A stretch of 30,761 bases of DNA from positions 1 through 30,761 of the forward strand of contig CAZHRF010000038.1 of NCBI GenBank assembly GCA_964534625.1. Direction: 5' to 3'. A program made the position numbers and the translations under genes. Below are positions 20,719 to 28,766 of this stretch, piece by piece. Origin of the DNA: an uncultured archaeon (GTDB lineage: Archaea > Asgardarchaeota > Heimdallarchaeia > Heimdallarchaeales > Heimdallarchaeaceae). Below the pieces are notes generated by a model. It saw only the letters and a list, made by a program, of their open reading frames with translations. It was not told the DNA's origin and did no database searches. Position 1 is the stretch's first letter, and each line of letters opens with the position of its first letter.

Positions 20719-20762
20719 ATGAACTTTCACTAACTAAAGGAGTGAGATTTCTGACTGTCTCA
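20719..20762 (-). mobile_element. Degenerate single-hairpin IS200/IS605-derived mini-element
   Basis: Minus strand TTAC|TGAGACAGTCA-GAAA-TCTCACTCCTTTAGTTAGTGAAAGT-TCAT; same 25-nt GAAA-to-TCAT spacing as 2375 and 27598. Confidence 0.5.
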
Positions 20763-20880
20763 GTAAAATCATTTCGTTTCTTATCATTTCCTTTTAAAAA
20801 GGGCATATTAAGCTTTTATCAGACACAGAGAAGGAGAAAAAGAAAGAAAAAGAGATTTTTTTTAATATGTAGACTTAAGA

Positions 20881-22632: not shown

Positions 22633-23913
22633 ATGAAATTTAAAAATTTTGATATACAAAATGATATTAAGAAAGCATTGAACAAAATGGGCATGCATAC
22701 GCCTACTGATATACAAGATGTAGCTATTCCTGAAATCTTAGCGAATAATAAGACACATTTTATTGCTCAAGCTAAAACGGGTACAGGTAAGACACTCGCT
22801 TTTGCTATTCCTCTTTTTGAGATGATTGATTCTTCTTTAGAAAAGGTGCAAGCAGTTATCATGGCTCCAACTCGTGAACTTGTCACGCAGATTTATGATG
22901 TTTTATATGATTTAAATAAATATAAACGCTTGAAACTATGCAAGGTCTATGGTGGTGTGTCTATTGATAGACAGATTAATCTTATAGCGGGAGGAGCACA
23001 AATTATTGTTGCTACTCCAGGTAGAATTATTGACATATACAAACGGGGAAAGGTTTCTTTTGACCATATGAAATATTTTGTACTCGATGAAGCTGATCGA
23101 ATGTTAGATATGGGGTTCATTCCCGACATAGAGTTCTTACTTTTTGAAGCTATGAAAGAAGTATATCCACGCTTGTATTTATTCTCAGCTACTATGCCAG
23201 AGGAAATCGTCAAGGTAGCTGAATCTTATGCATTCGATTGGGGAGATGAACTAATAGAAATCAAAGTATCAAGCGATGATGATTTAACAGTGCAAAATTG
23301 TGATCAATACTTCTACCAAGTTGAAGATAGAAATAAGAAATACAATAAATTTGTCAAAATTCTCCAAAAAGAGCGACCTGAATCGTGTATTGTTTTTGTG
23401 AACACAAAACACTGGGGAGATATACTTAAGAGGCTGCTTATTCGAGATAAAAGAGTAAAAATGTACATTGGAACTCTTAACGGTAACATGTCTCAAAGAC
23501 AGCGAGAAAAAACACTAGAAAAATTCCGTCAAGGAAAAATTGATTGTCTTGTAGCAACTAATGTAGCTGCTAGAGGATTAGATATTCCTCGTGTTACGCA
23601 TGTGTTCAATTACGATATTCCCGAGGGTAAGCCCGAAGTCTATGTACATAGAATTGGCAGAACATCACGAATGAAAAGTGAAGGGAAAGCTATTGCTCTA
23701 GTCGAAAGAGAGCAATTAGAGATGCTCTATGATATTGAACACCTCATTAATAAACAAATACAGCGTTATTATCTAGATTCTAGAGAAAAGAATCGTTATA
23801 AGAACCTTGTTCGTTCTTCGTCTAAAACAGCTGGAAAACAAGATAAAAAAGAGTTCGAATATGTCGATAAAGAAACCAAAGATGTCTACGCTGATGTTTC
23901 TATTTATGGGTGA
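22633..23913 (+). CDS. DEAD-box RNA helicase
   Basis: Q motif, AKTGTGKT, PTREL, GG, TPGR, DEAD, SAT, ARGLD and HRIGRT motifs. Confidence 0.95.
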   Translation: MKFKNFDIQNDIKKALNKMGMHTPTDIQDVAIPEILANNKTHFIAQAKTGTGKTLAFAIPLFEMIDSSLEKVQAVIMAPTRELVTQIYDVLYDLNKYKRLKLCKVYGGVSIDRQINLIAGGAQIIVATPGRIIDIYKRGKVSFDHMKYFVLDEADRMLDMGFIPDIEFLLFEAMKEVYPRLYLFSATMPEEIVKVAESYAFDWGDELIEIKVSSDDDLTVQNCDQYFYQVEDRNKKYNKFVKILQKERPESCIVFVNTKHWGDILKRLLIRDKRVKMYIGTLNGNMSQRQREKTLEKFRQGKIDCLVATNVAARGLDIPRVTHVFNYDIPEGKPEVYVHRIGRTSRMKSEGKAIALVEREQLEMLYDIEHLINKQIQRYYLDSREKNRYKNLVRSSSKTAGKQDKKEFEYVDKETKDVYADVSIYG

Positions 23914-24052
23914 ACTACACCACCCCAAGTGATGGTGCTTCTTGCGAGTACATTGCTTGATGTTGTATAACAAGGTCTGTTTGTCGCAAATTACCAATAA
24001 ATTGTTGATAGGCTGTCCACAAGCCATTCTGGGATAGGTACCGTTATAGTAC
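23910..24052 (-). ncRNA. Putative orphan TnpB-type omega-RNA scaffold ending in an IS200/IS605 right end
   Basis: Minus strand GTACTATAAC...GCTTGTGGA...CAA-GAAG-CACCATCACTTGGGGTGGTG-TAGT-TCAC; shares motifs with 27598-27720. The 5' boundary is approximate. Confidence 0.55.
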
Positions 24053-26161: not shown

Positions 26162-27511
26162 ATGAAAAAGACTCCCAAATATAAAGCATATGGATTAAAA
26201 TCATTAGATAAAATTGCTAATAAGTATGGGATATCAGAGACTGATTTACCCGAGATCAAACTTTGTGGGCAGATTTTACCTTTCAAAACCAATAATTATG
26301 TTCTCGAACAGCTTATCAACTGGCAAAATTACAGAGAAGACCCTATGTTTAAGTTAAATTTTTTAAATAGCCAAATGCTTTCAAAAGAGCATTATAATAA
26401 AATTAAAACGCTTATTGATCAAAAGGCATCAAAAAAAGAGATCCAACAAGTTGCTACTTCTATAAGAAAGGAACTGAATCCTCATCCCGCTGGTCAAAAA
26501 GATTACAATACCCCCAGTTTCCAAGGTCAGAAATTAGAAGGGATCCAACATAAGTATCGAGAGACTATACTCCTGTTCCCTTCACCAGGGCAAACATGTC
26601 ATGCCTATTGCACGTACTGTTTTAGATGGCCGCAATTTTTAGGCAAGGATTTACACAAATTTTCTTTTCCTGCTAAAAAGATGGACTTACTCGTCGAATA
26701 CATACAAACAAATGAAGGAATTAAAGATGTTCTTATCACAGGTGGAGACCCGCTGGTTATGAAAACCAAAATTCTTTCAAAATTTATTAAACCACTTATA
26801 GATGCAGATATTAAACATCTTAGGACTATAAGAATAGGGACAAAGAGTCTTTCATATTGGCCTTATAGATTTTTAACTGATAAAGACTCAGAAAAATTGC
26901 TTTCGTTGCTGGAGTTTATTGTAGATAACAAAAAACATTTGGCTATAATGGCACATTTCACCCATTATAAAGAATTACGCACAGAAGCACTAAGACAAGC
27001 TGCTGAAAAACTTGTCAAGAGTGGAGCGGTAATAAGAACCCAAGCACCAATACTAAAAGATATTAACGATGACGCCCAGACATGGATTAAAATGATTAAT
27101 GAACAAGTAAAAATAGGCATGATTCCTTATTATATGTTCGTTCCACGAAATACTGGAGCTGATATTTATTTTAAAATCCCTCTAATTAAAGCATGGAAGA
27201 TCTATTTAGAAGCGTATAGAACATTTAGTGGATTGGGAAGAACCTTACGGGGACCAGTAATGTCTTGTAATCCGGGTAAAGTATTAATGTTAGGTAAAAC
27301 AACTATTGAGAATGAAAAGGCAATAGCGTTAAAGTTTATTCAGGGTAGGAATCCTAGATGGGTAAACAAAATCTTTTACGCAAAGTACAATGATAAAGCC
27401 ACATGGATAGATCAATTAACACCACTTAGAAAATCATTCTTTTATGAGAAAGAATTATTTAAATATTCAAGACCATACAATGAGATAAAAAAAATAAAGA
27501 AAGAAAAATAA
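26162..27511 (+). CDS. KamA-family radical SAM aminomutase
   Basis: HKY, CHAYCTYCFRW (CxxxCxxC), VLITGGDPL, IRIGTK and PYY motifs; candidate PLP lysine in SCNPGKV. Confidence 0.88.
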   Translation: MKKTPKYKAYGLKSLDKIANKYGISETDLPEIKLCGQILPFKTNNYVLEQLINWQNYREDPMFKLNFLNSQMLSKEHYNKIKTLIDQKASKKEIQQVATSIRKELNPHPAGQKDYNTPSFQGQKLEGIQHKYRETILLFPSPGQTCHAYCTYCFRWPQFLGKDLHKFSFPAKKMDLLVEYIQTNEGIKDVLITGGDPLVMKTKILSKFIKPLIDADIKHLRTIRIGTKSLSYWPYRFLTDKDSEKLLSLLEFIVDNKKHLAIMAHFTHYKELRTEALRQAAEKLVKSGAVIRTQAPILKDINDDAQTWIKMINEQVKIGMIPYYMFVPRNTGADIYFKIPLIKAWKIYLEAYRTFSGLGRTLRGPVMSCNPGKVLMLGKTTIENEKAIALKFIQGRNPRWVNKIFYAKYNDKATWIDQLTPLRKSFFYEKELFKYSRPYNEIKKIKKEK

Positions 27512-27597
27512 CACACTCTTATTTTTCTATTTTCCAATGAATTCTTGATTCAAGAATGTAACTTCTTGTCGCTTTTTTCTATTCTATTTGGGTTGAC

Positions 27598-27720
27598 ATG
27601 AACTACCACTGCCTAAAGGCAGATGGTTTCTTGTTTCAACGAAGTTGCCTCAAAATGAGGGCTTACCTCTTCTCCACAAGCGTAAGTTCCCGTAGTACCT
27701 ACGGTACAATGTTCTAGTAC
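27598..27720 (-). ncRNA. TnpB-type omega-RNA (reRNA) scaffold
   Basis: ACCGTAGGTACTACGGGAACTTACGCTTGTGGAGAAGAGG...CTTCGTTGAAACAAGAA plus right-end hairpin; reads TVGTTGTYACGE...SLKQE, the usual overlapping TnpB tail. Confidence 0.75.
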
Positions 27721-27986
27721 ACACAACGTACCGACTCTACATCGGAAGTCCTCAATACTCTTACTTAGGTCGATACATATACCCATTATCGTTGTTTAAT
27801 GTGTAGCCCTATCTTCTACTTCCATCTTTTTCTTTTTGTTTCGTACCACTCTTGGTTTTCGAGATGGTACCAAGACACGTACACAAAGACAGCATACTTA
27901 CAAAATGTTTGTATGCTAAAACGTGTATTGTTTTTTCTTCTTTTCATCCCCGCCCTCAAGGACGGGGTTTTCAAGAAGACGTTCAC
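27598..27986 (-). mobile_element. 389-bp non-autonomous IS200/IS605 element (both ends, no tnpA or tnpB)
   Basis: Left end TTAT|GTGAACGTCTTCTTG-AAAA-CCCCGTCCTTGAGGGCGGGG; right end GAAA-CCATCTGCCTTTAGGCAGTGG-TAGT-TCAT. Both guide/cleavage tetranucleotide pairs obey the IS608 pairing rule. Confidence 0.85.
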
Positions 27987-28433
27987 ATAAAAAAAATATT
28001 TATACAAAAACAGTTTAATTTTTGCATATACAAAGACTGCATATTTAGTTTGCAAATTTTGCATTTGTATTCCATGAGTCCCAGGGTCAATAGTACAATG
28101 AACCCGCTTACTGGCGTTAAGATCTTATTATTTAGCCTTGTCCATATCATCTGTGCTTCTATCGCCACAGGACCATTACGTACTTTTGTTCCTGGATTCT
28201 TCTCGTATACTCCTTGACTACAGGTACATCATGTTCCTCTTCGTCACGTTGCCAGTTGGGTGAAGTGCTACATTTTTAGAAAAGTTCCTAAAACTGCCTA
28301 AAAAAACTCATCGCAAGAAGAACTTGATCTTTACAATTTTTTCTAATTAGTCAAATTCAAAATATATTAAAAAAGTAATCTTAGTCTAATTTTTTTAGAG
28401 AATCTTTAAATTTGTTTAGAGAAAACGTTAATC

Positions 28434-28766
28434 ATGTCAGACAAATATATTACCGTCGAAGTTAGTAAAAAAACAGCAAAAATAGCCAAAACTATTATGA
28501 TTGTGGGCCTCATTATTGGTATCCTTATGATGCTTATTTCGGGTATTTTCTTCGCAAGCGGAGATTATGATACTGCTAATATAACAATTATCATATCTGT
28601 CGGGTTTATTTTTCTCGGGTTATTGATCTACATGTTCATAGTAGGTATTGCTAGTATGAAGCGAACAATGGGAAAAAAGAAACTAAATCAAACAGCCTTA
28701 CGTATAATTGCCATGGTAGCTGGATCTTTATTATTGTTAGTGATTTTAGTTGCTATTCTATCTTAA
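28434..28766 (+). CDS. Small 3-TM hypothetical membrane protein
   Basis: 110-aa ORF with three hydrophobic segments followed by a T-rich tract. Confidence 0.75.
   Translation: MSDKYITVEVSKKTAKIAKTIMIVGLIIGILMMLISGIFFASGDYDTANITIIISVGFIFLGLLIYMFIVGIASMKRTMGKKKLNQTALRIIAMVAGSLLLLVILVAILS

Follow-up and report, generated by a model that had tools for sequence, protein, structure and literature searches.

The question raised by this locus is whether a short element with IS605-type ends and no protein gene still keeps a guide RNA that a TnpB nuclease made elsewhere could use. The window, by which we mean the whole stretch of DNA that was analysed (30,761 nucleotides, contig CAZHRF010000038.1 of assembly GCA_964534625.1), comes from an uncultured archaeon of the Heimdallarchaeaceae. 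Its metagenome-assembled genome, G000 (3.37 Mb, 120 contigs, GC 32%, 89.8% complete), is the source of all contigs designated by C numbers below. A first-pass annotation, made from the sequence alone, had placed at 27578-27990 a protein-free IS605-type element with an apparently intact TnpB guide-RNA (omega-RNA) scaffold, and had proposed that its RNA could act as a guide in trans.

A BLAST search of G000 with positions 27560-28010 as the query returned about 13 copies spanning most or all of it, together with many end fragments. The limits of the element were set from 13 aligned genomic copies with unrelated flanks: in minus-strand orientation, the sequence common to the copies runs from GTGAACG, before which the left-end limit falls at 27986, to ...GGTAGTTCAT, after which the right-end limit falls at 27598, and outside these bounds nothing is alike. 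The element so delimited occupies 27598-27986 on the minus strand, measures 389 bp, and is non-autonomous, of the IS200/IS605 type (PATE/MITE) (Table 1). The span first proposed includes it, but adds the 20-nt right flank (the would-be guide) and TTAT. Wherever a copy has this type of left end, insertion has occurred 3' of a fixed motif, with TTTAT preceding the left end, and no duplication of the flank (TSD) was found at the right end of the aligned copies. Four copies, namely that in the window and those on C33, C19, and C15, are 98-100% identical; therefore, this subfamily has moved recently.

Table 1. Features of the element and its immediate flanks, in window coordinates
Feature	Position	Strand	Basis
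Whole PATE/MITE, 389 bp	27598..27986	-	13 aligned copies, unrelated flanks
TTTAT target/transposon-adjacent motif, outside the element (TTAT = 27987-27990)	27987..27991	-	conserved in copies
Left-end leader, 15 nt, GTGAACGTCTTCTTG	27972..27986	-	sequence and copies
Left DNA guide AAAA, pairs with TTAT (IS608 rule)	27968..27971	-	co-variation among copies and in the G001 autonomous element
Left subterminal hairpin CCCCGTCC-TTGA-GGGCGGGG	27948..27967	-	sequence; conserved in copies
Left-end block common to tnpB-bearing copies	27896..27986	-	98-99% identical, element positions 1-91
Mid-tnpB codon relic (...ISKTKSG...), 28 nt	27846..27873	-	96% identical to C30:33561-33588 and C16:37568-37595
Decayed C-terminal tnpB frame H*TT...TVGTTGTYACGEEV...KQETICL*	27613..27801	-	translation against C16/C4 and G001 TnpB tails
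Omega-RNA scaffold core, 112 nt, to right-end boundary	27598..27709	-	R1 92.2 bits, 21/22 pairs
Stem A hairpin CCGUAG-GUA-CUACGG	27690..27704	-	co-varies in MITE copies: CCGUCG/CGACGG, CUGUCG/CGACAG
Long-range helix, 5' strand CUUGU	27676..27680	-	pairs with 27630-27634
Long-range helix, 3' strand ACAAG (its G is the first base of GAAA)	27630..27634	-	R1 model
Right DNA guide GAAA, pairs with TCAT	27627..27630	-	fourth base co-varies with the element's last base
Right subterminal hairpin, also stem C of the RNA	27606..27626	-	sequence and covariance model
Right cleavage motif TCAT	27598..27601	-	copies, co-variation
Right flank GTCAACCCAAATAGAATAGA, would-be 16-20-nt guide, outside the element	27578..27597	-	different in each copy, unique in genome

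Terminal inverted repeats are absent; instead, subterminal imperfect hairpins stand at both ends, on the same strand. The left end reads TTTAT, 15 nt, AAAA, and hairpin, whereas the right end reads GAAA, hairpin, TAGT, and TCAT. Under the IS608 rule, 4-nt DNA guides lying 5' of the hairpins pair with the cleavage motifs, and the pairs AAAA/TTAT and GAAA/TCAT, noted at first pass as consistent with this rule, co-vary across relatives in just this manner. On the left, copies with the guide AAAA sit behind TTTAT, whereas MITE copies with AAAG, as well as those of the mini-elements described below that have this guide, sit behind TTTAC, and the autonomous element of the sister genus (genome G001) likewise combines AAAG with TTTAC. 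On the right, we counted 24 cases of GAAA/TCAT, 16 of GAAT/TCAA, 10 of GAAG/TCAC, and 1 of GAAC/TCAG, with a handful of exceptions; all four Watson-Crick combinations of GAAN/TCAN' thus occur. The co-variation at the two ends is strong evidence that the element is a substrate of a Y1 transposase.

In IS608 of Helicobacter pylori, as Barabas and colleagues reportedly established in 2008, the 4-nt guides used by the Y1 TnpA lie 5' of the hairpins and pair with TTAC and TCAA. The end architecture seen here is the same, and the relatives in G001 and G005, both of the sister genus, use the IS608 pairs themselves (AAAG/TTAC and GAAT/TCAA), whereas the genome under study has AAAA/TTAT and GAAA/TCAT, with both partners changed. 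A further difference from IS608 is that the transposase gene is absent from the element and was not found in the assembly.

None of the open reading frames of the element (at most 82 aa) matched a Pfam family, and the translation indicates that the codon for the RuvC-III Asp has been lost. A real small gene inside the element was considered and rejected. With both hairpins in place over 389 bp and no protein-coding capacity of this kind, the early description of the locus as a protein-free IS605-type element stands, and we are nearly certain that 27598-27986 is a protein-less IS605-type MITE.

Judging from alignment and translation, the element is an internally and multiply deleted tnpB element that keeps decayed tnpB codons. 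Over its first 91 nt, it shares 98-99% identity with the left ends of tnpB-bearing copies on C30, C7, C112, C41, C57, and C76. This identity ends about 30 nt before the start codon of those copies, and the 30 nt directly upstream of the tnpB start, which may hold the promoter, are not kept in the element; no TATA-like box was confidently recognised. The relic ISKTKSG from the middle of the gene has its counterpart in the VSKTKSG of intact TnpB relatives, and the last 190 nt of the element read as a decayed TnpB tail that matches C16/C4 as well as the intact relatives.

Intact relatives were found in the sister genus, where G001 and G005 carry tnpB genes for proteins of 427-429 aa; their right end is laid out like that of the element and is 77-79% identical to it. 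A Y1 tnpA lies directly upstream of the related tnpB in these two genomes; therefore, the parent was an IS605-type tnpA-tnpB element. Relatives of the parent nuclease gene carry the names of Heimdallarchaeota/Promethearchaeota MAGs, and the closest solved homologue of the parent TnpB clade is ISDra2 TnpB (E 8e-62, residues 5-379).

For comparison of the scaffold, tnpB loci were gathered from species-representative genomes and metagenomes, and in every one of them a common block lies at the tnpB 3' end and extends to the right-end boundary. Alignment A2 comprises 25 non-redundant omega-RNA blocks of tnpB-bearing relatives, none from G000, and the covariance model R1, built from A2, was run over the whole of G000. 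The A2 fold consists of the stem A hairpin, a long-range helix (CYUGU/RCARG), a variable middle stem, and a terminal hairpin. Compensatory changes are seen among the 25 tnpB-bearing relatives at 16 of the 22 predicted pairs; in the long-range helix, one position varies between U-A, C-G, and G-C, and another between G-C, C-G, and A-U.

The best R1 match in the whole of G000 is the scaffold core of the window copy, together with identical copies (92.2 bits, E 6e-24; E 6e-26 within the window). The match covers model positions 1-112 from end to end, and 21 of the 22 model pairs are formed. The scaffold of this youngest subfamily fits the family consensus better than that of any tnpB-linked copy in G000 (C30, 80 bits; C7, 77; C4, 61; C64, 59; C16, 58), and the diverged, older MITE copies score 50-58 bits, with mismatches in the long-range helix, e.g., on C24, C22, and C3. 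Placing the 13 MITE copies on the model gives standard pairs in 92% of pair cells and double changes at 8 pairs, values reached by 0 of 500 shuffles and by none of the slid controls, in an alignment that was itself fitted to R1 and in which some of the variation may come from different parents. The UUC at 27600-27602 and the upstream GAA at 27687-27689 are both present; they are conserved in most relatives and hence do not co-vary, and the UUC is a candidate pseudoknot strand for pairing with this GAA. Rfam yielded nothing at gathering score in the window, and around the element only matches at chance level (E 0.3-10). We conclude with high confidence that the scaffold is structurally intact in comparison with tnpB-bearing relatives. 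The omega-RNA-like block described at first pass is accordingly upheld, and the scaffold does not show the loss of pairing relative to autonomous copies that had been named as a possible refutation of the trans-guide idea.

Since the R1 match extends exactly to the final base of the element, 27598, the right flank lies where a guide would be. At an empty site, the left-flank TTTAT would be joined to the right flank GTCAACCC..., which fits the geometry of TnpB homing. The guide search against host and viral contigs suggested in the first-pass annotation was carried out: the 20-nt flank occurs once in G000 and has no exact match in viral contigs, as expected for a homing guide. The 12-nt guide seed is found at one other place in G000, without TTAT in front of it. 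The sequencing runs listed as containing this DNA are four, all of them DNA runs of a single microbial-mat study. Their contigs, compared over 26900-28700, showed no joint across the element, which would mark an empty allele, and G000 has no paralogous empty site for the joined flanks of 7 copies.

The probable account is that the locus, a PATE/MITE derived from a tnpA(Y1)-tnpB parent, keeps the end signals for the Y1 transposase and the entire 112-nt scaffold of the kind bound by ISDra2-type TnpB nucleases, for use by a TnpB acting in trans. In the mechanism that we envisage, a minus-strand transcript would be trimmed to the scaffold plus 16-20 nt of the right flank (GTCAACCC...), and a compatible TnpB made elsewhere would load the trimmed RNA. 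Excision of the element would join the left-flank TTTAT to the right-flank sequence, the ribonucleoprotein would cleave the site so vacated, and the element would be restored by recombination with a copy that is still filled. The element would in this way exploit a transposase and a nuclease that are both supplied in trans. The analysis establishes what the element is, where it came from, the rules of its ends, and the structural intactness of its scaffold, whereas transcription of the element, loading of its RNA, and cutting are steps that we infer.

The idea of a trans-acting guide locus thus draws support from the intact scaffold and the homing geometry, but neither a demonstrably intact cognate tnpB nor a Y1 TnpA was found. 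A tblastn search of G000 with the G001 TnpB as the query identified two full-length cognate copies, on C30 and C16, both of which are frameshifted, outside long homopolymers. The copy on C7 is without residues 135-246, those on C4, C27, and C31 are truncated, and the fragments on C112, C41, C76, and C64 have reading frames that stay open up to the contig ends; no demonstrably intact cognate tnpB was found by this search in the 89.8%-complete assembly. As for TnpA, the same assembly contains no PF01797 match and no tblastn match below E 0.19 to the G001 protein. Since the assembly is incomplete and broken exactly in these repeats, the missing tnpB and tnpA are not proof of absence. The sole intact TnpB of the genome (425 aa, on C42) is an unlikely partner, being 30% identical, from another clade, and without an adjoining R1 match.

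That a functional TnpB takes up this scaffold in the present-day organism is a proposition we hold only tentatively, leaning somewhat against it. Similarly tentative is the reading in which the same MITE carries its omega-RNA block as an inert passenger, which came along with the right end on loss of the parental gene and looks intact only because the subfamily is young, the matching TnpB or TnpA being no longer made. The state of the fully assembled cognate tnpB copies, all broken, and the missing Y1 TnpA speak for this reading, as do the low scores and helix mismatches of the older MITE copies. It also gains from the mini-elements, which lack the scaffold and have multiplied nonetheless: mobility therefore does not require the scaffold, which could be a passenger. 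The recent history of the family points the other way, as the near-identity of the four youngest copies implies that a transposase must have acted very recently, and it is the most recently amplified subfamily that has the best scaffold in the genome. Furthermore, double changes among the copies preserve pairs, and at least four tnpB copies (C112, C41, C76, and C64) keep an open frame up to the contig ends that cut them, in a MAG of 89.8% completeness.

The mini-elements (mini-PATEs) are about 47-50 bp long and number some dozens in G000, with a single hairpin and no omega core, indicating that the transposase substrate can shrink to one hairpin. They consist of the left-end leader, one hairpin, and TAGTTCAT, as exemplified in the window at 2372-2421 and 20719-20771 (R1 scores of 23 and 9.5 bits).

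The MITE family itself is mosaic. The window copy (on C38) and the copy on C6 are 99.5% identical in the middle of the element and 80.5% identical in the scaffold. The scaffold of the window copy is in turn a patchwork, with the 5' 47 nt resembling C30 (91.5%) and the 3' 65 nt resembling C16/C4 (94-97%), which points to exchange between elements. The surroundings of the scaffolds also differ between the genomes: in G001 and G005, each of the 16 R1 matches lies where a tnpB match has its 3' end, whereas in G000, where 22 matches reach 49 bits or more, only 6 adjoin a clear tnpB remnant, 13 belong to the MITE, and 3 have at most decayed tnpB traces. One could go further and suppose that the gene-less elements that bear a guide RNA (at least 13, plus other orphan cores) parasitise TnpB and the transposase, that they now outnumber and may outlive working tnpB genes, and that they are selected for capture of TnpB through guide competition, with scaffold segments swapped by gene conversion; we consider this extended scenario unlikely.

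Archaeal IS1341-type genes are known to give sense-overlapping transcripts. It is nevertheless highly improbable that the right-end block serves the transposase as an extended DNA signal, or yields a sotRNA-like regulatory sense/antisense RNA of tnpB elements, rather than a nuclease guide: the terminal hairpin and GAAA/TCAT are indeed DNA signals for Y1 transposases, and such transcripts would suit a regulatory role, but about 45 nt of the right end suffices for mobilisation, as the mini-PATEs attest, the co-varying stem A and long-range helix lie outside these 45 nt and match an ISDra2-type scaffold in length and layout, and the sense-overlapping transcripts are nowadays generally taken as omega-RNAs.

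Taking the locus as a MITE with a retained guide-RNA scaffold, both the kind of element and the idea of a trans-acting guide have been reported before (Meers 2023; Altae-Tran 2021/2023). According to Altae-Tran et al. (2021, as summarised in PMC10691335), OMEGA systems include omega-RNAs that are mobilised and stand alone, and these were shown to work in trans with TnpB; PATE-like, protein-less IS200/IS605 elements encoding omega-RNAs have been described in Geobacillus stearothermophilus (Meers et al. 2023, 10.1101/2023.03.14.532601). Like these, the present element has no protein gene, ends of the IS605 type, and a right-end omega-RNA that needs a TnpB from elsewhere, and it occurs in several copies alongside tnpB elements of the same genome. 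It differs from them in that it resides in an Asgard (Heimdall-type) host, has TTTAT as its transposon-adjacent motif, and carries a scaffold patched together from two tnpB subfamilies of that host; moreover, an intact partner tnpB or tnpA is not seen in this assembly, and activity in trans is here a prediction.

A structural reference is provided by ISDra2 of Deinococcus radiodurans, the functional scaffold of which is 116 nt long, with a dispensable 5' region and a 3' UUC that pairs with an upstream GAA as a pseudoknot (PMC10097598; PDB 8H1J, 8BF8, 8EXA). The two scaffolds are alike in length (about 112-116 nt to the right-end boundary), in having several stems with a variable middle stem, and in a UUC near the 3' end with a GAA upstream. 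They differ in the transposon-adjacent motif (TTGAT in ISDra2, TTTAT here) and in that the scaffold described here lies in an element without tnpB and has a pseudoknot that is predicted by analogy.

The element alone leaves existing knowledge unchanged. It does add a well-delimited archaeal example of gene-less IS200/IS605 elements that retain a TnpB guide RNA, and it brings a scaffold model backed by co-variation (R1/A2) together with a clear read-out of the DNA-guide rule of the transposase. The comparison also reveals a lineage shift: every scaffold in the sister genus is attached to a tnpB, but most of those in G000 are orphans. If the partners are present, the family would lend itself, as a natural system, to asking how many guides one TnpB serves.

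Three further observations concern the neighbourhood of the element and its relatives. A weak R1 match (20.1 bits) lies in the window at 23910-24048 on the minus strand, with a conserved GCUUGUGGA and GCAAGAA and a GAAG/TCAC right end; its features suggest an orphan scaffold that has diverged and belongs to another subfamily, also present at C17:57059. At 28074-28312, 85 bp from the element, the window contains an unrelated repeat of about 240 bp with short terminal inverted repeats (ATGAGT...ACTCAT), of which G000 holds at least 12 copies at 83-95% identity and which has a run depth 10-30 times that of its flanks; a composite of the element and this repeat was considered and rejected, as each family occurs elsewhere without the other. 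Finally, in a group of relatives (loci L049-L053), a TGA immediately ahead of stem A ends tnpB, and PTVGTTGS(Y/H)ACGD is conserved in frame downstream of it, a conservation that probably operates at the RNA level and mimics a peptide. In G000 and G001, this tnpB stop has been lost, and the open reading frame continues through the scaffold.
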